Notes under the pieces: model-generated | What the model was told of the DNA's origin: nothing | What the model saw: only the letters and a program-made list of their open reading frames with translations | Database searches by the model: none | Sequence record: MK482689.1 | Length of the DNA: 64,000 bases | Origin: Escherichia phage vB_EcoM_LMP33 | Direction: 5' to 3' (one strand) | In this document: in pieces, positions 18,180 to 27,059 of the stretch | Numbering within the stretch: the first letter of the stretch is position 1 | Layout: each line of letters starts with the position of its first letter | Program-made: the position numbers and the translations under genes

Positions 18180-18665
18180 ATGAATTACATGGAGATTCGA
18201 CCATTTGACACAGCTAATGGTGAAGGGGTTCGTGTAAGCCTCTTCGTAGCTGGTTGTAAGCATCACTGCGAAGGCTGCTTTAACAGGGAGTCTTGGAAGT
18301 TTAATGCTGGTAAAGTGTTCACTTATGCAAACCTATATGGAATCATCCAGTTAATGGGTGACGATGCTGTCAGTGGGTTGTCAATACTTGGTGGAGAACC
18401 TCTGGATGATAGAAATATTCAAGAGGTTACCAATATATGTAAACGTATTAAAACTGTTTACCCAGAGAAGTCTATCTGGCTCTGGACAGGTTTTCAGTTA
18501 CACGAAAAAATTCACCTAGATGTAATGAAATATGTTGACGTGGTGATTGATGGTAAGTATGATTCATCTAAACCAACAGTTAAACCGTATCGTGGTTCTG
18601 ATAACCAAAACCTCTGGAGAAAAGAGTATGGGTGGCAAGGTGATTGTCAGTGGCGAGCCGAGTAA
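18180..18665 (+). CDS. nrdG: anaerobic ribonucleotide reductase activating protein (radical SAM)
   Basis: N-terminal FDTANGEGVRVSLFVAGCKHHCEGC (CxxxCxxC-type cluster site) as in NrdG; downstream of nrdD. Confidence 0.8.
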   Translation: MNYMEIRPFDTANGEGVRVSLFVAGCKHHCEGCFNRESWKFNAGKVFTYANLYGIIQLMGDDAVSGLSILGGEPLDDRNIQEVTNICKRIKTVYPEKSIWLWTGFQLHEKIHLDVMKYVDVVIDGKYDSSKPTVKPYRGSDNQNLWRKEYGWQGDCQWRAE

Positions 18666-18790
18666 GTCTCGTCGTAAAGTAGGTTATCGGTAAAGGCCAC
18701 TTTACAATGTTCTACAGAACAAACTTAACCGTTTGGTGTCACTGAAGAAGAACTTAAAATCTTTTGTGAAAAGATTGAGAGAGATATGAA

Positions 18791-19048
18791 ATGGGACTCT
18801 GGAATAGTTTTAAATCAAAAGTAAAAGCAGCACTAGCTTCATTAGGTATGCTCACTGGTGTTGATGTGACTCATCTTATGCAGAACTTTAAGATGGATGA
18901 GAAGCTGGCTAATGAGATTATGAAAAGTATCTATGTAGGCCGTGGCAAAGGTGGTAAGAAACAAGCCCACCGTCCGTCTGGTGCAGCAGCTATTAAACGA
19001 GCAGCTAAGAAAGCTCGTAACCGTAAACGTAATAAGAAGGCTAAATAA
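18791..19048 (+). CDS. hypothetical protein with basic C-terminus
   Basis: 85-aa ORF ending KKARNRKRNKKAK. Confidence 0.3.
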   Translation: MGLWNSFKSKVKAALASLGMLTGVDVTHLMQNFKMDEKLANEIMKSIYVGRGKGGKKQAHRPSGAAAIKRAAKKARNRKRNKKAK

Positions 19049-19371: not shown

Positions 19372-19384
19372 ACAGATACTATAA

Positions 19385-19412
19385 GGGAACTGTAAAGGTT
19401 CCCTTTTATTTT
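19385..19412 (+). terminator. intrinsic terminator (GGGAAC..GTTCCC + T-run)
   Basis: Hairpin plus TTTTATTTT. Confidence 0.55.
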
Positions 19413-19421
19413 GGAGATGAT

Positions 19422-19937
19422 ATGTATCTGTCAAACCTAAAACGTTCTGCTGCAATGTCAGTTCTAAGACTCAGCTTTGATGAGCGTCAAGAGTTTATAG
19501 ACTCCCACAAATATGACCCTTCAAATTCTAATCACATGGTTCTTTGGAATCGTGATAACTTCCGTGAAAGAGCACTTGTCCGTTATTACCCACACTACAC
19601 AATAGATAACCTGTATGAATGGTGTGTTGTGAAGAACACCATTGCAACACTGAACAATCTTTGCAGGTATACGGGTAAGCAAACATTTACATTAGGTCAT
19701 CACAAACCTGTTACAAAAGGTGGTGAACACCACTGTGCAAACTGGTTTATCCAAACTAAAACTGATAACCAGAAGCAAGGAGATAGCCTCCTAAGTATCC
19801 CCAAGATGACCTATGAAGAGCAAGAGAAATATATCAAAAATAATATGCCAGATGTGCTTGACAACAACTATACAGATTTGGCAATATCTCTCCTGTTGAA
19901 GTTCGAGACAGTTTATAGGGCAACTTATAATGGCTAA
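19422..19937 (+). CDS. HNH endonuclease-like protein (putative)
   Basis: GHHKPVTKGGEHHCANWFIQTKTDN resembles the HNH core (HH...GG...N). Confidence 0.35.
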   Translation: MYLSNLKRSAAMSVLRLSFDERQEFIDSHKYDPSNSNHMVLWNRDNFRERALVRYYPHYTIDNLYEWCVVKNTIATLNNLCRYTGKQTFTLGHHKPVTKGGEHHCANWFIQTKTDNQKQGDSLLSIPKMTYEEQEKYIKNNMPDVLDNNYTDLAISLLLKFETVYRATYNG

Positions 19938-20208
19938 AGAAAAGTGGGAGATTTTACCATTAGTCAGTGAAGGAGGTAATGGTTGTGAAATGTACATGAT
20001 ACGTGGTCATGTTCCAGAGCCAATTGCACTTGAGATGGTAAACAACTTTACAGATGGTTCTTACAAAGACTTAGGCGAACCAACTGTCAAGCAACAATGG
20101 GTTAAACCTGTACCAGACAGCACAGGTAACTGTAGTGTACTTTATCACGTTGTAGACCCTGCAAAATGCAAATCTGCAATGGCAGTAACAAACGTAACTT
20201 TTGATTGA
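19930..20208 (+). CDS. hypothetical protein
   Basis: 92-aa ORF. Confidence 0.3.
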   Translation: MAKEKWEILPLVSEGGNGCEMYMIRGHVPEPIALEMVNNFTDGSYKDLGEPTVKQQWVKPVPDSTGNCSVLYHVVDPAKCKSAMAVTNVTFD

Positions 20209-21101
20209 GAGAGAAAACTATGAAAACATCTATCCGTGTTACAGTTCATTCACCAACTAAAGGAACTCATGAAGAAGAGTTTAACATCATCCAATTTCCT
20301 TCTGGTGAGATTGGTGGGCACTTTTCGCCAGAGTTTGTTGATTTCACTGCTTATGCAGCATCATCCATCAACAATGTGATTATGATTGTAAAAGGTTATG
20401 ATAAGGATACATTGTTTGCTGTGGCACTTGCTAAAGAAGCAATTGATGATTTAATTCCTCATGATTATGCTTTAAAGACTGTCATCTTTTACTACTTACC
20501 AAATGCACGTTATGACCGTCACATGTTTAAAGGCGACGCAGCAGCTTTAAAGGTTTTTGCTAAACAGGTAAATGCAATGGGATTTGGTGCAGTCTGTGCA
20601 GTTGACCCTCACAGTTACGTTCCAGATAACCTGTTTAACTGCTTCCAGAGTATTCCTCAAAAGGAGATTGCAGTTCACTACGCAAATGACCCACTGATTG
20701 ATTACTTAGTAGCCCCAGATGCAGGTGCTGCTAAGAAGATTGCAGAGACTGCTAAAGAGGTGGATAAACCATACATCACAATGTCTAAGGTGCGTAACCT
20801 TAAGACTGGTGAAATTACTGGTATGCGAATCCTTGACGATGTTGATTTGACAGATAAAACTGTCATGATTCTGGATGATATTTGTGATGGAGGTCGAACC
20901 TTCATAGAAGCAGCCAAACATCTTCGTGAAGCAGGTGCAAAACGTGTGGAACTCTATGTAACTCATGGTATTTTCTCTAAAGATGTTGAAAACTTGCTTG
21001 ACAATGGTATTGACCATATCTACACTACAAACTCTTTAGGGGAAGCTAAAGACCGTGGCTTAACACATTATAGCCAAGTTACTGTAGCAAACCTTGATTA
21101 A
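20205..21101 (+). CDS. ribose-phosphate pyrophosphokinase-like protein (PRPP synthetase family; possible ADP-ribose pyrophosphokinase)
   Basis: 298 aa with a PRTase-type nucleotide-binding motif VMILDDICDGGRTF; directly upstream of a NAMPT-like gene. Confidence 0.6.
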   Translation: MREKTMKTSIRVTVHSPTKGTHEEEFNIIQFPSGEIGGHFSPEFVDFTAYAASSINNVIMIVKGYDKDTLFAVALAKEAIDDLIPHDYALKTVIFYYLPNARYDRHMFKGDAAALKVFAKQVNAMGFGAVCAVDPHSYVPDNLFNCFQSIPQKEIAVHYANDPLIDYLVAPDAGAAKKIAETAKEVDKPYITMSKVRNLKTGEITGMRILDDVDLTDKTVMILDDICDGGRTFIEAAKHLREAGAKRVELYVTHGIFSKDVENLLDNGIDHIYTTNSLGEAKDRGLTHYSQVTVANLD

Positions 21102-21146
21102 AACTTTATAGGGGCTTCCAAGCCCCATTTTGAGAGAGATTAAAAG

Positions 21147-22928
21147 ATGACTAAATCACTTTATGCAGTACCAGCAGGTTTAAATGCAGATGCTTACAAA
21201 TCTGGTCATGTTTACCAGTATCCTAGCGCAACAGAGTACTTGATGTTCAATCTGACACCACGTAGCGACAAATGGTTTAACAGCCCCTTAGCAATTGACG
21301 GTGTAGTGGCTTTTGGTATTCAACGTTTTGTTAAAGATTACTTGATAGACCACTGGAATGCCACTTTCTTTGAACGTGATAAAAAAGAAGCCATTGATGA
21401 AATCTTAGAAGTCATGAATGGTGTTCTGGGTAAAGATGCTATCGGTCGAGAGCATTGGGAAGCACTTCACGACTTAGGTTATCTACCAGTTGAAGTATAC
21501 GCTGTAGAAGAAGGCACAGTTGTTCCAATGCGTGTCCCGATGATTGTCTTTCAGAACACTGTTTCAGGTTTTCATTGGGTAGCAGGTTATCTGGAAGATG
21601 CTTTCTCTGCTGAAATTTGGAAGGCTTGCACCATTGCAACTATTGCATTGCATTACAAACGCATCTGTAAGAAGTGGGCTGACCTTACTTGTGACAATGA
21701 CTTACATTTACCTTATCAGTGCCATGATTTTGCTATGCGTGGTATGTCCGGCTTTACTGATGACGCATTTAACGCTGTAGGTCACTTAACCAGCTTTAAA
21801 GGGACTGATAGCTTCCCTGCTGTATACACGGCTAAACGAATCTATGGACAGTCCTACCCAATCTCTGATATTGGTAGTTCTGTACCAGCCACTGAGCACT
21901 CTGTAATGTGTGCAAACATTGCTTGGGAAGGTGGTAATGAGTTGATTGAAGAAGAAAGACGCTTTAAAGGTGAGTTACAAACCTTCCGTCGTTTCTTAAC
22001 AGAAACTTACCCAACAGGTATTGCAAGCATTGTTTCAGACACTTATAACTTCTGGAGAACTGTGTCAGAAATTTTACCAGCACTCCGTAAAGAAATTATG
22101 GAACGTGATGGCAAACTGGTAATTCGTCCTGACTCTGGAGACCCTGTACATATTGTCACAGGTTATAAAGCAATCCACTTAGAATGTGCTAAGAAGGCTT
22201 ATTACGAGCACCTAAGCAAGCTGGAAGCCAGTGACACAATGTTGAATGCTGTTCTTAACATGAAGCTTGAAAACATCAACTATGGTATTGCTGGATGGCT
22301 ACTGTCAGAAGGCTACGAAATGGTTGTTGATAGAGAAGACTTTGAAGTTGCTGACACAGTGATGTTGAAGAACGCTTATATGGTTGGCTCTGCAAACGTT
22401 GTAACACGCCCTGTAGCAGAGATTGATGGAGCTATTAAGACCTTGTATAACATCTTTGGAGGAACTATCAACTCTAAAGGTTTTAAGGTACTGGATGAGC
22501 ACATTGGCCTTATCTATGGCGACTCTATCACGTTGGAACGTGCAAACGAAATCCTGAAGCGCCTGTATGAAATGGGTTTTGCAAGCTCTAACGTAGTGTT
22601 TGGCGTAGGCTCTTACACTTACCAGTACATGACTCGTGACACCTTTGCATTTGCTGTCAAAGCAACCCTTGCAAGCATTGGTGGTAAAGAGATTATGCTT
22701 GCAAAAGACCCTAAAACAGATAGTGGTGTTAAGAAGTCTGCTTTTGGTGGTGTAGCACCTATGTGGGATGGTGAAAATCTGAAAGCTGTAGATGGCTATG
22801 GGTTCCAGAGCTTTGCAGATGCACTTGAACATCCAGCTTGTGCTTTACGTCTAGTCTTTAGTGACTCTGAGCAGTTCGGCTACACAACTCTTGGTGATAT
22901 TCGAAATAATATTGACAAGCAGCTTTAA
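21147..22928 (+). CDS. nicotinamide phosphoribosyltransferase-like protein (NadV/NAMPT family)
   Basis: 593 aa; N-terminus NADAYKSGHVYQYP resembles the NAMPT TDSYKxxHxxQYP signature; length fits. Confidence 0.65.
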   Translation: MTKSLYAVPAGLNADAYKSGHVYQYPSATEYLMFNLTPRSDKWFNSPLAIDGVVAFGIQRFVKDYLIDHWNATFFERDKKEAIDEILEVMNGVLGKDAIGREHWEALHDLGYLPVEVYAVEEGTVVPMRVPMIVFQNTVSGFHWVAGYLEDAFSAEIWKACTIATIALHYKRICKKWADLTCDNDLHLPYQCHDFAMRGMSGFTDDAFNAVGHLTSFKGTDSFPAVYTAKRIYGQSYPISDIGSSVPATEHSVMCANIAWEGGNELIEEERRFKGELQTFRRFLTETYPTGIASIVSDTYNFWRTVSEILPALRKEIMERDGKLVIRPDSGDPVHIVTGYKAIHLECAKKAYYEHLSKLEASDTMLNAVLNMKLENINYGIAGWLLSEGYEMVVDREDFEVADTVMLKNAYMVGSANVVTRPVAEIDGAIKTLYNIFGGTINSKGFKVLDEHIGLIYGDSITLERANEILKRLYEMGFASSNVVFGVGSYTYQYMTRDTFAFAVKATLASIGGKEIMLAKDPKTDSGVKKSAFGGVAPMWDGENLKAVDGYGFQSFADALEHPACALRLVFSDSEQFGYTTLGDIRNNIDKQL

Positions 22929-22942
22929 AAGTATATGATAAG

Positions 22943-22965
22943 AGGCTCCTACGGGAGCCTTTTTA
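22943..22965 (+). terminator. intrinsic terminator (AGGCTCC-TACG-GGAGCCT + TTTT)
   Basis: Perfect hairpin and T-run after the NAMPT-like gene. Confidence 0.6.
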
Positions 22966-22981
22966 ATTTCTGGAGAAGATT

Positions 22982-23317
22982 ATGAAAATCAAAGAGATGA
23001 ACATCAACATCGTCTTAGAGGAACGTTGGGAGAACATCAAGAAACCTGAAAATGGTCATAAGTTCCTTAACAAAATTTTAGTAGCAGCTAAAGAAGAACT
23101 GACTGGTAAGATTGCAGCAGCAATCACAATAAAGGTCTGTGTAAAAGGTCTTCCAGACAATCACCAATTTGCACTTGACGAGTTTAAAGAAAGCTTCTAC
23201 AATCCAAATAAACAGATGCTTGAAAGTAACTTTGCAGTATCTACAAGTATCGTCCATGACAGAAGCTTTATCCTTTACAAGAATATGAGAGGTGAGTCAT
23301 GCAAGCATATTGGATAG
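22982..23317 (+). CDS. hypothetical protein
   Basis: 111-aa ORF. Confidence 0.3.
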   Translation: MKIKEMNINIVLEERWENIKKPENGHKFLNKILVAAKEELTGKIAAAITIKVCVKGLPDNHQFALDEFKESFYNPNKQMLESNFAVSTSIVHDRSFILYKNMRGESCKHIG

Positions 23318-23503: not shown

Positions 23504-25870
23504 ATGCGCATGGTAAATGACCACGCAGAAGTGATTAAGAGTTCAACTTCTTTAGAGACGTCTCAAGCACAGATTACAATGACACCTGAAATGTTCAGCC
23601 TTTTGAGTTCTGGTGTATATACCTTTAAAGAAAGGGCAGTGATTCGTGAACTGTCATGTAACGCAGTAGATGCTCAGAAAGAAGCTGGAAAAGAGAATAT
23701 CCCGTTCCATGTGCATTTACCTACTCGTTTTGAACCTTACTTTGAAGTCCGTGATTTTGGAACTGGATTGACTCATGATAAAGTTATGAGTTTGTACCTA
23801 AACTACGGGGCTTCTACGAAGAATGACTCTAATGACTACATTGGTGCAATGGGTATCGGCTCAAAATCTCCATTTGCAATTGCTCAGTCATTCACAGTGT
23901 CTAGCTATGTTGACGGTGTTGTTAATAAGTACTCTGTTTATCTTGAGAATGGTATCCCTCAAGTAACTAAGCTTACCACTAACCCAACAAAAGAACCTAA
24001 TGGTTTAGCTGTACGTGTGGCAGTTGCTGACCACCGTATTTCAAAGTTCTTTGAAGAGGCTGGTAATGTATACTCATACTTTGCTGTAAAACCAGAGAGT
24101 AATGTGGAGTATAATGATATATTAGCAGATATGGATGTGATTGCTCGTGAAGAAGGTGTCTATGATGCCATGACTCATAAGCATAGCTGGCGTTCAAGCA
24201 GCAATAGAACAGAGTTTAACGTGGTTATGGGTAATATTGCCTACCCAGTTAATATGGAGGCATTACTTGGTGATGATTTCTTCAAAGTATTACCAGAATT
24301 TTTCCGCAGGAGCGTAGACCTTGTAAACATCTACATGCCTATTGGTTCAGTTGCTATTGCAGCTTCTCGTGAAGCATTGCAGATGAATGACACGACAAAA
24401 AATGTTATCATTGAGGCTACTAAAAAGATAACTGAAGCCATTACAAAGGATGTTATCAAGAAAGTTAATAGCCAACCTACACTCATGGATGCTGCACAGG
24501 CTTATGCTGAGTTACGTTTGAACTCACGAGAGATGTTTAATGCTGTGTGTCCAAAGCTAGAGTGGGGTGGTGTTAAGCTTGATTCTCTGGAAGAAGAATT
24601 ACTAAACATTCGTCGTGGAATTATCTACGCAGAAGACGGCTCAGTCATTTATGAACGTGACGGTAAAGGTAATATTAAGGTTGATAGGAACGGGAACAAT
24701 ATACCTAAAGTAGATTATCTTTATGACCCAGTTGCTTATGTCAAGTTCAACTCTTTAGAGAGTAAGATTCGTGCAACATCGCTTTCCTACACTCAAGAGG
24801 CAAGTATGTTCAATATCTTTGGCGCAATGCGTAAAAGCCAAATTGAACAGTTTTTGTTTGTTATAAATGACCGTCGCAATAAAAATGGTACTGAGAAAAC
24901 TGTAGGACGCAATCAAATCTTGCGTGGTGCATGTCGAGACTATGCCAGTGAGTCTAGTCTGTTTCACAGATACAATGGTATTGTCTTTGTATTCTCGACT
25001 GAAAAAGAGTTAGACGACCTAATCAATCTGCACAAACTTGATAAAAGCTTGTTAAAGATTGTGAAGATGTCTGATAAGGAACACCATTATCAGCGTAAAG
25101 AAGCTGTAAGAGGTGTTGTAAAACTCTGGAAAGCTGTTCCAGCAGAAGGTGTAGCTTCCTATAAAGAGGTTTCAGAGGACTTTGATACAATTGAAGAACC
25201 TCAGCTTTACATTAAGGCAGTTGGTGACACAGTTGATGGCGAATGTTTTTGCTCATCTCCAGAAGATGTAGCTAAGTCAGTTGCTAATGTTACAGGTAAG
25301 ACAGTCTATGTTTTCCGAAAAGCAAATTGGAAAAAGATACCAGAAGACTGGATTGAAGTAGATGAGAAGCTCTTGAACGACAGCTTAACTGATGTTCATT
25401 GGATTAATCATAACAGGTATATGACACGTATCTATATGAATGGTGTCCTCGACCTTACAAGCAGTTGGATTATTGCCAGAAACTTTACGTTCAATAACAG
25501 GAAGATTTCTCGTGGCTATTGTTATTCACGGGATACAAACAAAACTATCTTCTTAGAAGGCAATGAAGATGCTGTAGAGGCAATGTTTGGTAAAATCCAA
25601 TACGTTGCTGCACCGTTTGCATATACTTACACTATTAGTAGGTTGCAAACTTTGAAAGACTGCCTTGACAATGATACAAAGCTGTACAAGAAAATTAAGA
25701 AAGCTGGTGACCGTATGGTCATTAAGGTGACAAACTACCTTTCAAAAAGAAAACAAGAAAACTTCTTGCTTTCTCATTTAGATTGGAATAAAGTGTCACC
25801 CATCGAAGTGAGTAAGTTCTTAGGCTTTGATGTGAAGTGTGTTCCAGAAGGGACTACAATTTACGATTAA
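23504..25870 (+). CDS. rIIA: rIIA-like protein (GHKL/Bergerat-type ATPase N-terminal domain)
   Basis: 788 aa immediately upstream of a clear rIIB homolog; N-terminal region has GHKL-like motifs (ELSCNAVDA; RDFGTGLT; GAMGIGSKS). Confidence 0.6.
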   Translation: MRMVNDHAEVIKSSTSLETSQAQITMTPEMFSLLSSGVYTFKERAVIRELSCNAVDAQKEAGKENIPFHVHLPTRFEPYFEVRDFGTGLTHDKVMSLYLNYGASTKNDSNDYIGAMGIGSKSPFAIAQSFTVSSYVDGVVNKYSVYLENGIPQVTKLTTNPTKEPNGLAVRVAVADHRISKFFEEAGNVYSYFAVKPESNVEYNDILADMDVIAREEGVYDAMTHKHSWRSSSNRTEFNVVMGNIAYPVNMEALLGDDFFKVLPEFFRRSVDLVNIYMPIGSVAIAASREALQMNDTTKNVIIEATKKITEAITKDVIKKVNSQPTLMDAAQAYAELRLNSREMFNAVCPKLEWGGVKLDSLEEELLNIRRGIIYAEDGSVIYERDGKGNIKVDRNGNNIPKVDYLYDPVAYVKFNSLESKIRATSLSYTQEASMFNIFGAMRKSQIEQFLFVINDRRNKNGTEKTVGRNQILRGACRDYASESSLFHRYNGIVFVFSTEKELDDLINLHKLDKSLLKIVKMSDKEHHYQRKEAVRGVVKLWKAVPAEGVASYKEVSEDFDTIEEPQLYIKAVGDTVDGECFCSSPEDVAKSVANVTGKTVYVFRKANWKKIPEDWIEVDEKLLNDSLTDVHWINHNRYMTRIYMNGVLDLTSSWIIARNFTFNNRKISRGYCYSRDTNKTIFLEGNEDAVEAMFGKIQYVAAPFAYTYTISRLQTLKDCLDNDTKLYKKIKKAGDRMVIKVTNYLSKRKQENFLLSHLDWNKVSPIEVSKFLGFDVKCVPEGTTIYD

Positions 25871-25949: not shown

Positions 25950-27059
25950 ATGACTACTAAAACTAAAGCACAGATTGACGCAGAAATTTACGAACTGGTT
26001 AAAGAAGGTAAGCTGACTAAAACAGCTATCGCACAGAAGTTCAATACTTCAACCCGTTCAGTTGGTCGTGCTGTAGAGCGTCATGAAGCAACCTTAAAAG
26101 GTAAGAAAAAGGCAACTTCTAAGCCAGCTAAGAAGACCCTAAAGCAAGTTGCTAAGTCAGTTAAAAAGAAAACTGGCAAACCAGTTGAAAAGGTTGTTAA
26201 AGAGGCTGTACAGAAAGCTCCAGTAAATAAACTGCATGAAGCTATGCAGAAAGATGACAAGATTGAGTACATGATTACTGGTGACTCTGTAATTATGACT
26301 TACGGTTCAGAGTCTGAAATTGTTGAATCTACTCATCCGAACTATCAAGAGATTGTAGTTCATGTTGTGAAAGGTGAGTTTAAGAAAGCCTTTGAACTGA
26401 TGAACATTCGTAAGTCTATCGAAAACTTCACTCAGGGTGCTATCACAATCAAAGGTGACAAGCTATTCTACGGTGCTGTTGAGATGCGTTCTACTCTGGT
26501 TGACCGTATTCTTCACATGATGAAAACTGGCGATAAAGGTTTTGAACGACTTGTAATGTTCTTCGAAAAACTGATGGAAAACCCATCTAAAGATTCTGTA
26601 GAACAACTTTGGGGATTTGTATCTCACCTTGATGTTGAGATTGATGAAGAAGGCTACATCATTGGTTGGAAGAAAGTCTCTACTCGTGAAGGCAAGCTGG
26701 TTGACTCTCACACCTACAAAGTGCCTAATGATTTGGGTAACATTGTAGAAATGCCACGTTGGATGGTTGATAATAACCGTAACGTAACTTGCTCTCAAGG
26801 TCTTCATGTTGGTGCTTGGGATTATGTTCGTTGCTTCTCAGGTGATACAATCCTGAAGGTTCGCGTACATCCACGAGATGTTGTATCTGTTCCAACTGAT
26901 TACAACGATATGAAGATGCGTTCCTCTCGTTATGAAGTTGCAGCAATCGTTGATAATCAACGTAAAGTGCTGGAAGCATGGGACGGTAAGACTGAAGCTT
27001 TGCATGTCATCGTTGGCACTGCTGGTGAACTCATCTCTCAACGTAAACGTGAAATCTAA
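25950..27059 (+). CDS. rIIB: rIIB-like protein
   Basis: Strong resemblance to T4 rIIB as recalled from memory (GLHVGAWDYVRCFSG...VRVHPRDVVSVPTDYNDMKMRSSRYEV cf. T4 VKVHPRDVVSIPIDYNDAKMRTCQYEV). Confidence 0.7.
   Translation: MTTKTKAQIDAEIYELVKEGKLTKTAIAQKFNTSTRSVGRAVERHEATLKGKKKATSKPAKKTLKQVAKSVKKKTGKPVEKVVKEAVQKAPVNKLHEAMQKDDKIEYMITGDSVIMTYGSESEIVESTHPNYQEIVVHVVKGEFKKAFELMNIRKSIENFTQGAITIKGDKLFYGAVEMRSTLVDRILHMMKTGDKGFERLVMFFEKLMENPSKDSVEQLWGFVSHLDVEIDEEGYIIGWKKVSTREGKLVDSHTYKVPNDLGNIVEMPRWMVDNNRNVTCSQGLHVGAWDYVRCFSGDTILKVRVHPRDVVSVPTDYNDMKMRSSRYEVAAIVDNQRKVLEAWDGKTEALHVIVGTAGELISQRKREI

Follow-up and report, generated by a model that had tools for sequence, protein, structure and literature searches.

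A probable two-gene NARP1 operon of Felixounavirus in Escherichia phage vB_EcoM_LMP33

Two adjacent genes in the window, the whole 64,000-nucleotide stretch of Escherichia phage vB_EcoM_LMP33 (MK482689.1) analyzed here, very probably constitute the NARP1 operon (NAD+ reconstitution pathway 1) of a Felixounavirus, in its plain form with two genes. The operon is regarded as plain because no gene for a Macro phosphatase or a RyR domain was found attached to it. In the window itself, the two genes were observed to be intact, orthologous to and syntenic with those of phage Bas63, and conserved at the residue level. The chemistry and the anti-defence phenotype would be those described in the literature for the orthologues. 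On alignment, every published catalytic or specificity residue that could be mapped is retained, with the exception of one adenine-contact residue of Adps. NARP1 is already known and the operon matches the one in which it was discovered; the finding is real but ordinary.

Both open reading frames were intact and located on the plus strand, at 20205..21101 (298 aa from a TTG) and 21147..22928 (593 aa), with a spacer of 45 nt between them. A sequence-only reading had described adjacent Prs-like and NAMPT-like genes at 20205-22928, and the two co-directional frames were found there together with the motifs it had quoted, VMILDDICDGGRTF at 20862-20903 and DAYKSGHVYQYP at 21189-21224. Translation of the first gene almost certainly begins at ATG 20220, for a protein of 293 aa. 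This start is preferred over TTG 20205 because the TTG shares nucleotides with the TGA that terminates the preceding ORF, because the purine-rich TTGAGAGAGA lies 5-12 nt upstream of the ATG, and because the GenBank records of LMP34 and Bas63 annotate a gene of 882 nt. ATG 21147 is preceded by the same TTGAGAGAGA motif. Over 20000-23000 the window was 100% identical to two Escherichia phages of Felixounavirus, LMP34 and LMP25. It belongs to this genus, and its gene order NrdD-NrdG-...-adps-namat-...-rIIA-rIIB agrees with that of Bas63. The first protein matched PF00156 (1.2e-11), PF14572 (4.5e-10), TIGR01251 (7.7e-36) and phrog_619 (4.7e-97), and the second matched PF04095 (6.8e-35), NF006629 (1.4e-140) and phrog_448 (3.6e-202), assignments far above chance in both cases. 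A terminator-like hairpin with a T-run was found by terminator scan at 22940..22963 (+), 12 nt past the stop codon of namat, and is likely the 3' end of the transcription unit.

The closest known system is the pair bas63_0079/bas63_0080 of Bas63 (JohannRWettstein), a phage of the same genus with the same gene order, protein lengths (293 and 593 aa) and flanking genes (10.1101/2024.02.11.579819). The two pairs are syntenic, and NARP1 was discovered in Bas63. Bas63 differs in its Adps N-terminal allele and in one additional small gene, 0081, that follows namat and is absent in the window.

The first gene (20220..21101, +) was assigned as adps, encoding a putative ADP-ribose diphosphokinase (ADPR-PP synthetase) which, by analogy with its homologues, would pyrophosphorylate ADPR. 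The protein was identical to Bas63 gp79 at 230 of 293 positions (78%), compared with 23% identity to E. coli Prs. An Adps HMM, made without Felixounavirus sequences, gave 196 bits for the window protein and 113 for E. coli Prs. All Prs equivalog models of NCBIfam failed, the best being NF002095 with 103.6 bits where 296 are required and the others scoring lower, while the broad Prs subfamily model TIGR01251 was just passed (123.6 bits against 113). Bas63 Adps is among the seeds of the published Adps tree, and 97% of the Adps clade lies directly beside a Namat gene (10.1101/2024.02.11.579819). A neighbour-joining tree of 8 Adps and one E. coli Prs had long branches and gave no clean Adps clade, and the protein was assigned instead from its HMM scores, its signature residues and its identity to the Bas63 protein. 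The best PDB matches, in a copy of the database that holds no solved Adps structures, were ordinary Prs with at most 69 bits.

The signature residues were mapped by alignment to the structurally solved Adps of Vibrio phage ICP1 (PMC13586617), which is 31% identical to the window protein and shares with it the catalytic Lys, the acceptor Asp, the DDICDG loop, the Phe lid and the loss of the Prs C-terminal module. The catalytic beta-hairpin KVRNLKTGEI (20787..20816, +) contains K190, the counterpart of Lys185, which is essential in ICP1 Adps; the hairpin pattern K-x-R-[DN]-x-x-T-G-x-I was present in 8/8 aligned phage Adps, compared with KRRP-RANVSQ in E. coli Prs. Acceptor aspartates and the donor (PP) loop were located in DDICDGGRTF (20874..20903, +), which reads DDICDGAASF in ICP1 (CDGAAS against CDGGRT) and DDMIDTGGTL in E. 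coli Prs. In total, F26, R97, H131, D167, K190, D219, D220, D223 and F228 of the window protein correspond to ICP1 F18, R87, H121, D161, K185, D212, D213, D216 and F221. F228 is a lid residue, and the second lid residue of ICP1, F223, is replaced by Glu. Of the aromatic contacts to adenine in ICP1, F18 is kept as F26 and the stacking residue F92 is replaced by Met102 in both the window protein and Bas63 gp79, the latter being functional in vivo (10.1101/2024.02.11.579819). Judged from alignment only, the alpha11-alpha12 module at the Prs C-terminus (filament and regulation) is absent, the window protein being about 20-25 residues shorter at this end than E. coli Prs. Adps of SPbetaL1, ICP1 and DyoEdafos pyrophosphorylated ADPR and not ribose-5-phosphate in vitro (10.1101/2024.02.11.579819; PMC13586617). 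The in-vitro chemistry was established on these homologues, which are only 29-31% identical to the window protein, and not on purified Bas63 Adps.

The second gene (21147..22928, +; 593 aa) was assigned as namat, encoding a putative nicotinamide ADP-ribose transferase, and its product was identical to Bas63 gp80 at 585 of 593 positions (99%). It scored 596 bits with a Namat HMM and 241 bits with a Nampt HMM, and a neighbour-joining tree divided Namat from stand-alone Nampt. A phmmer search of the PDB gave 431 bits for SPbetaL1 Namat, 352 for HdNadV, 180 for Xcc Nampt and 143 for human NAMPT. AF2 prediction from the single sequence was unusable (pLDDT 32.8); an alignment of 36 sequences raised the pLDDT to 93.2, and the top Foldseek matches of the resulting model were 9W5X and 9W5W, both SPbetaL1 Namat, with a target-normalised TM-score of 0.95. 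Entries 9KE8 and 9KEO are H. ducreyi NadV according to their Foldseek labels, and a literature search on their origin gave nothing relevant.

Judged by motif and alignment, the published Namat-specific adenine clamp is present in the second protein. The selectivity-clamp loop (SCL), PRSDKWFNSPLAID, was aligned at 21258..21299 (+) and has Lys42 followed by Trp43. By the SCL rule, Arg, Lys or Tyr occupies position 3, and with Lys or Tyr there, stacking on the adenine falls to the residue at position 4; the window SCL, PRSDKWF, follows this rule with Lys42-Trp43 and is the same as in Bas63 Namat. The selectivity-clamp helix (SCH), GSYTYQYMTRD (aa 488-498; 22608..22640, +), was located by motif and has the aromatic residues Y490 and Y494 at positions 3 and 7. 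The SCH motif was common to seven Namats adjoining an Adps, and at the same site three stand-alone phage Nampts had GGGLLQ, Xcc Nampt had GGALLQ and H. ducreyi NadV had GAQTYQR.

A Nampt-like catalytic core is present in the same protein, with Y17, F195, D221, H251, R327 and D329 equivalent to Y15, F189, D215, H245, R306 and D308 of SPbetaL1 Namat. The Tyr and Phe form the nicotinamide sandwich, the His is catalytic, and the Arg and Asp act on the ribose. H251 lies in PATEH (21885..21899, +), in an invariant alignment column, and R327 and D329 were aligned within RPDSGD (22125..22142, +); in SPbetaL1 the last two residues are ribose-binding and essential to catalysis. Equivalents of SPbetaL1 D13, R192, G360, D361, G390, S391, T398, R399 and D400 were all kept as well. 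The NARP1 of this Bacillus phage (9W5W/9W5X) was the best PDB match by both sequence and fold, and it shares gene order, Namat catalytic core and SCH/SCL clamp logic with the window, the two Namats being only 45% and the two Adps only 29% identical. Its SCL uses Arg40 directly, whereas the window uses Lys42-Trp43, and its Adps PP loop is DDLSSFGGTF in place of DDICDGGRTF. SPbetaL1 Namat prefers ADPR-PP to PRPP and yields NAD+ directly (10.1101/2024.02.11.579819). A preference of the window Namat for ADPR-PP over PRPP may be expected from its 99% identity to Bas63 gp80 together with the in-vivo data on Bas63.

In the proposed mechanism, a host NADase defence of the SIR2, TIR or SEFIR type would split NAD+ into ADP-ribose and nicotinamide. 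Adps would then produce ADPR-pyrophosphate and AMP, and Namat would exchange the pyrophosphate of ADPR-PP for nicotinamide, giving NAD+ directly by a route that would need neither NMN nor host NadR or PncC. Reversal of NAD+ depletion would allow the abortive-infection defences SIR2-HerA, DSR1/2, type I Thoeris and SEFIR to be overcome. Experimentally, Bas63 without genes 79-80 becomes sensitive to SIR2-HerA, ADPR-PP was seen only when both operon and defence system were present, and the effect was independent of host pncC or nadR (10.1101/2024.02.11.579819). In a separate knockout screen, deletion of g79 or g80 of Bas63 resulted in a 10^4-10^6 drop in plating on Sir2-HerA.

Namat homologues convert PRPP into NMN in vitro if ADPR-PP is absent (10.1101/2024.02.11.579819), and a dual use of the pair could be considered, in which NARP1 is accompanied by conversion of host PRPP into NMN when ADPR-PP is lacking, with a basal boost of NAD+ even without an NADase defence. 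In agreement with such a dual use, the Bas63 genes g79 and g80 also give an advantage against retron Ec86 and hhe, two defences not known to be NADases. It is nevertheless unlikely, since ADPR-PP is preferred by Namat when both substrates are present and NARP1 phages gave no excess NAD+ in defence-free cells (10.1101/2024.02.11.579819).

The N-terminal half of the window Adps is a deeply diverged recombinant allele. DNA comparison with Bas63 revealed a mosaic segment over the N-terminal domain at 20151..20750 (+), in which the DNA identity was 65-79%, compared with 91-99% in the flanks; over the first 60 residues Adps was about 50% identical to the Bas63 allele. In Namat, a well-folded insert of about 85 aa (residues ~343-427; 22173..22427, +) is specific to Ounavirinae and absent from SPbetaL1 Namat and Nampt. 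The insert was predicted by AF2 to be a compact alpha/beta sub-domain, with pLDDT 92-96 throughout, and a Pfam scan of the insert alone gave only a sub-threshold match to DUF4528. Neither the allele nor the insert was found to be discussed in the NARP1 literature examined. It is quite improbable that the two features add a role beyond textbook NARP1, such as regulation, transient coupling of Adps and Namat, escape from a host NARP1 inhibitor or a wider acceptor range.

For the allele by itself, an acceptor range or regulation altered relative to the Bas63 allele, for instance use of another ADPR derivative or evasion of a host factor, is also very improbable. The diverged segment does sit in an otherwise near-identical backbone, and in ICP1 Adps residues of the N-terminal domain touch the adenine of ADPR and build the hexamer core (PMC13586617). 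However, the mapped ligand-contact residues F26, R97, M102 and H131 were the same in both alleles, and the dN/dS of about 0.1 in the mosaic segment, where pS was 0.72 (saturated), indicates purifying and not diversifying selection. The window-type allele is also the commoner one in Felixounaviruses, occurring in 154 phage records compared with 91 for the Bas63 type.

Public annotations would suggest canonical salvage, in which a true PRPP synthetase and a true Nampt (NadV) make NMN from ribose-5-phosphate, ATP and nicotinamide, and host NadR/PncC completes the synthesis of NAD+. The genes are named ribose-phosphate pyrophosphokinase and nicotinamide (or nicotinate) phosphoribosyltransferase in LMP34, Bas63 and the majority of the remaining Felixounavirus hits, the Pfam and NCBIfam matches are Prs and NAPRTase/Nampt models, and the PRPP-to-NMN activity is retained by Namat in vitro. 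Canonical salvage is nonetheless highly improbable. Bas63 still overcomes SIR2-HerA in a host without pncC and nadR, a Prs assay of SPbetaL1 Adps yielded no product while ADPR-PP was seen in vivo, and Namat given both substrates forms NAD+ only (10.1101/2024.02.11.579819). No Nmnat or cytidylyltransferase-like domain was found by hmmscan in the four genes on each side of the pair. The Namat clamp is present in the window proteins, as are the features of Adps, and the scores with Prs equivalog models fall below the cut-offs. PRPP/NMN salvage and NARP1-type reconstitution of NAD+ had been put forward as two alternatives that could not be separated by eye. The tools separated them in favour of NARP1, through synteny with Bas63 79-80 (78% and 99% identity), the clamp, the Adps features and the failed equivalog models; clustering of both proteins with canonical Prs and NadV was not found. 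NARP3, consisting of PnuC and a NadR-like protein, was rejected, as the proteins differ.

Among other known systems, NARP2 (Nampt and Nmnat of Vibrio phage KVP40) and stand-alone phage NadV share the Nampt fold and the goal of restoring NAD+. NARP2 differs in being PRPP-based, in proceeding via NMN and in requiring Nmnat, and these Nampts have GGGLLQ instead of an aromatic clamp and no adjacent Adps, while the window has the aromatic clamp and lacks an Nmnat gene within four genes of the pair. The core Adps and Namat are also shared with NARP1-AP, which adds the Macro-domain phosphatase Adpp, and with NARP1 accompanied by the RyR-domain glycosidase RyDEP. At the sensitivity of hmmscan, neither Macro (PF14519, PF01661, PF20016) nor RyR (PF02026) domains were detected in four genes on each side of the window pair (Pfam E <= 0.1; PHROGs); the source paper on extended NARP1 used HHpred, which is more sensitive. 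Because these domains were not detected, the window phage is predicted to be sensitive to aRES-type NAD+ cleavage, which gives ADPR-1''-phosphate. Comparable bacterial systems are the 'prs-nadV' operons linked to NrtR (Rodionov et al. 2008, PMC2330246) and bacterial NARP1 (PMC12774641). The nearest cellular homologues, with 46-48% identity, were found in Klebsiella, Cronobacter, Kosakonia and others, and have the SCH motif and a preceding Adps-like gene. They differ in being chromosomal, beside a divergent NrtR regulator, and in holding only 12-21 residues at the site of the insert, and they probably serve a housekeeping or regulatory role.

The discovery value is small: the pathway dates from a 2024 description in a phage of this genus, and structures for the two enzyme families appeared in 2025-2026. 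For re-annotation of Felixounavirus records, a simple rule is provided by the aromatic clamp of the SCH, Lys-Trp in the SCL, the hairpin of Adps and its DDICDG loop. Resistance to SIR2-HerA, DSR, type I Thoeris and SEFIR is a predicted host-range trait of therapeutic Felixounaviruses, which should stay sensitive to aRES because the operon is without the Adpp phosphatase. By orthology to Bas63, the pair would lie within a run of anti-defence genes, with gp77 acting against retron Ec67 and rIIA/rIIB against Qat.

Folding of the adps-namat spacer gave a short G+C hairpin, GGGGCTTCCAAGCCCC, followed by ATTTTG (21111..21126, +), with a centroid energy of -11.5 kcal/mol and z = -2.1. This hairpin may act in weak attenuation or in stabilising the RNA; it was rejected as an intrinsic terminator, as it has four U residues only and fails the terminator-scan criteria. 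In relatives, the spacer is occupied by an HNH endonuclease gene.

The sequence-only reading had placed a Prs-like gene directly upstream of a Nampt-like gene, and the open reading frame list confirms two co-directional frames, one at 20205-21101 (298 aa if read from a TTG) and the other at 21147-22928 (593 aa). Both sequence motifs quoted for them were recovered, VMILDDICDGGRTF at 20862-20903 and DAYKSGHVYQYP at 21189-21224. The start codon of the first gene, adps, is most probably the ATG at 20220, giving a protein of 293 aa, because the TTG at 20205 overlaps the TGA stop codon of the preceding frame, because the purine-rich TTGAGAGAGA is located just upstream, as it is before ATG 21147 of the second gene, namat, and because the GenBank records of the identical phage LMP34 and of Bas63 annotate an 882-nt gene. 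TTGAGAGAGA is found 5-12 nt before both start codons (window 20205-20222 and 21127-21149) and is probably a ribosome-binding context common to adps and namat. Family assignment was unambiguous for both proteins. The first matched Pfam PF00156 and PF14572, TIGR01251 and phrog_619 (4.7e-97), and the second matched PF04095, PF18127, NF006629 (1.4e-140) and phrog_448 (3.6e-202).

Two pathways had been proposed for the pair: salvage by a canonical Prs and NadV, in which NMN is made from nicotinamide and PRPP, and NAD+ reconstitution pathway 1 (NARP1), in which Adps makes ADPR-PP from ADP-ribose and Namat adds nicotinamide to give NAD+. The NARP1 alternative was found to be correct on the basis of synteny and identity with Bas63, the Namat clamp, the Adps residues and the HMM scores, and canonical salvage has a very low probability. 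This phage genus is already known to carry the system, and the published work on it covers genetics, metabolomics, biochemistry and structures. NARP1 was discovered by deletion of genes 79-80 of the Felixounavirus Bas63 (10.1101/2024.02.11.579819), which encode its Adps (gp79) and Namat (gp80). Without these genes Bas63 no longer overcomes SIR2-HerA, and the drop in NAD+ is more severe (10.1101/2024.02.11.579819). The phenotype persisted when the host lacked pncC and nadR, and NMN is therefore not the product. ADPR-pyrophosphate was seen only when the operon and the defence system were present together. ADPR is pyrophosphorylated by the gp79 homologue from SPbetaL1, which the preprint judged not to be a Prs; in the preprint, the legend of Fig 2D gives ribose-5-phosphate or ADPR with ATP, while the main text gives 'PRPP and ATP' with no product. 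The gp80 homologue converts ADPR-PP and nicotinamide into NAD+, which was the sole product even when PRPP was offered as well. Type I Thoeris, DSR1, DSR2 and SEFIR are likewise neutralised by co-expressed NARP1, whereas type II Thoeris is not, and the pathway is present in 4.3% of phage genomes. In a separate Bas63 knockout screen, deletion of g79 or g80 gave 10^4-10^6 lower plating on Sir2-HerA, with a milder effect of the same knockouts on retron Ec86 and on hhe.

Across 20000-23000 the sequence showed 100% identity with Escherichia phages vB_EcoM_LMP34 and LMP25, and 92-99% with over 200 Felixounavirus genomes, wV8, FelixO1, VpaE1 and the KhF phages among them. The neighbourhood is typical of Felixounavirus, with NrdD and NrdG upstream, then small unknown frames, and rIIA and rIIB downstream. 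Comparison with Bas63 (JohannRWettstein, MZ501086) showed an identical gene order. Identity to the window protein was 585/593 residues for Namat (bas63_0080) and 230/293 (78%), free of gaps, for Adps (bas63_0079), and flanking proteins were 83-100% identical. Bas63 differs by an additional 345-nt gene, bas63_0081 (L004:25509-25853 in the Bas63 locus), directly 3' of namat, which is absent from the window (about 22979). Another variable patch was observed at 18650-18950.

According to the 2026 structural paper, Namat is defined by a two-part selectivity clamp, in which a loop (SCL) gives a further stacking residue to those of a helix (SCH). The helix motif of the window Namat is GSYTYQYMTRD, with the aromatics Y490 and Y494. 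Its loop is PRSDKWF, where Lys42 is followed by Trp43; this is exactly the Bas63 case, in which Lys is present and the fourth residue does the stacking. The core residues Y17, F195, D221, H251, R327 and D329 were kept in the alignment, as were G458, D459, G488, S489, T496, R497 and D498. The aromatic motif was present in all seven aligned proteins encoded beside an Adps (those of the window, Bas63, SPbetaL1, Staphylococcus phage K, a mycobacteriophage, Pseudomonas K5 and Klebsiella May). GGGLLQ takes its place in three stand-alone phage Nampts (a KVP40-like Vibrio phage, KP15 and Xanthomonas RTH11), and Xcc Nampt has GGALLQ and no aromatic clamp. The closest solved Nampt, H. ducreyi NadV (HdNadV), has GAQTYQR, without either clamp aromatic. 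Felixounavirus sequences were left out of the Namat HMM, against which the window protein scored 596 bits; its score against a Nampt HMM was 241 bits. A phmmer search of the PDB gave 431 bits for SPbetaL1 Namat (9W5W, 9W5X), 352 for HdNadV, 180 for Xcc Nampt and 143 for human NAMPT. The AlphaFold2 model (36-sequence alignment; pLDDT 93.2, pTM 0.92) had 9W5X and 9W5W as its top structure matches, with a target-normalised TM-score of 0.95. HdNadV (PDB 9KE8, 9KEO), the second-best solved match, is overall nearer to Namat than to Xcc or human Nampt, and may represent an intermediate form linking Namat with Nampt.

The functional residues of Adps are known from the September 2026 structures of ICP1 Adps (PMC13586617). 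F26, R97, H131, D167 and K190 of the window protein aligned with ICP1 F18, R87, H121, D161 and K185, and D219, D220, D223 and F228 with D212, D213, D216 and F221. The donor (PP) loop reads DDICDGGRTF in the window and DDICDGAASF in ICP1, compared to DDMIDTGGTL in E. coli Prs. KVRNLKTGEI forms the catalytic hairpin, and all eight phage Adps aligned fit the pattern K-x-R-[DN]-x-x-T-G-x-I, whereas E. coli Prs has KRRP-RANVSQ. In the alignment, the window Adps also stops short of the alpha11-alpha12 module of Prs. It differs from ICP1 Adps at two residues, with Met102 for F92 and Glu230 for F223; both are also present in Bas63 gp79, which is active in vivo. Against an Adps HMM containing no Felixounavirus members, the window protein scored 196 bits and E. 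coli Prs 113. None of the NCBIfam Prs equivalog models was reached, by a wide margin, and the protein was barely above the cut-off of the broad TIGR01251 subfamily model. A small neighbour-joining tree of the eight Adps and a single E. coli Prs resolved no Adps clade, and the putative clade placement of the window protein rests on the published tree seeded with Bas63 Adps.

Extended forms of NARP1 are known. NARP1-AP includes a Macro-domain ADPR-1''-phosphate phosphatase and counters aRES, and in another form a RyR-domain glycosidase allows cADPR signals to feed the pathway. Searches of Pfam and PHROGs with the four genes on each side of the pair detected no Macro, RyR, Nmnat or Nudix domain; the pair is therefore a plain two-gene NARP1, predicted to be without action against aRES. 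NARP3 (PnuC and a NadR-like protein) was considered and is unrelated to the pair. A sequence scan identified a terminator-like hairpin upstream of adps at 19383-19405 and a strong one at 22940-22963, 12 nt past the namat stop codon, and we infer that these bound the transcription unit. A short G+C hairpin at 21111-21126, in the 45-nt spacer between the genes (21102-21146), is followed by just four U residues. VpaE1- and FelixO1-type relatives carry a free-standing 492-nt HNH homing endonuclease gene in this spacer (L015:1506-1997 in one such relative), whereas the window spacer is empty.

Orthology with Bas63 places the pair within a series of genes whose anti-defence role has experimental support. 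The gp77 orthologue (19422-19937) is 89.5% identical to Bas63 gp77, which counters retron Ec67 (PhageMaP preprint); it matched an HNH-like PHROG, but is GIY-YIG according to that preprint. The rIIA (23504-25870) and rIIB (25950-27059) orthologues are 97% and 83% identical to those of Bas63, which counter qatABCD (PhageMaP preprint).

What is new is limited to side features that the NARP1 literature found does not cover: a mosaic in adps, an insert in Namat and NrtR-linked homologues. At 20151-20750, the 5' two-thirds of adps encoding the N-terminal domain, DNA identity to Bas63 fell to 65-79%, compared to 91-99% in both flanks. Synonymous sites in this segment were saturated relative to Bas63 (pS 0.72), with a dN/dS of about 0.1. 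This fits an old allele that was moved by recombination and held under purifying selection. Felixounaviruses have two allele classes, the commoner window type (154 records) and the Bas63/FelixO1 type (91), with identical ligand-contact residues. The insert, of about 85 residues at about 343-427 of Namat (window 22173-22427), is missing from SPbetaL1 Namat and from Nampts. It was predicted by AlphaFold2 as a compact alpha/beta sub-domain of helix and strand (pLDDT 92-96), and tblastn found it solely in 253 phage records, nearly all from Felixounavirus and related enterobacterial phages. The insertion site is a hot spot of length variation, where family members have between 12 and 95 residues.

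The nearest cellular homologues are chromosomal (46-48% identity; Klebsiella michiganensis, Cronobacter, Kosakonia and others) and possess the Namat motif. In the K. michiganensis chromosome (L017:2211-5491), a divergent NrtR gene (Nudix and winged-helix) is followed by an Adps-like gene, whose product shares 48% identity with the window Adps across 190 aa, and by a Namat-like gene that encodes the motif GVGSFTYQYNTRD. The palindromes TGTGTCTTAGAGACA and TGTGTCTTAGGGACACA are both located in the promoter shared by the NrtR and Adps-like genes. NrtR represses transcription in an ADPR-responsive manner, as ADP-ribose frees it from prs-nadV operators, and the dedicated 'prs' paralogue puzzled the authors in 2008 (PMC2330246). 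By analogy, the NrtR-linked operons look like an ADPR-induced bacterial NARP1, which would serve ADPR recycling. No connection between NrtR and NARP1 was found in the literature searched for both terms together; ADPR-regulated transcription is alluded to in the NARP1 preprint (10.1101/2024.02.11.579819). In the ICP1 isolate MW794178 (L006:4221-5672), the tblastn match to Namat begins about 130 nt before the CDS as annotated, and the long namat frame is open only from 4293, which points to a frameshift, a sequencing error or an incorrectly called start.
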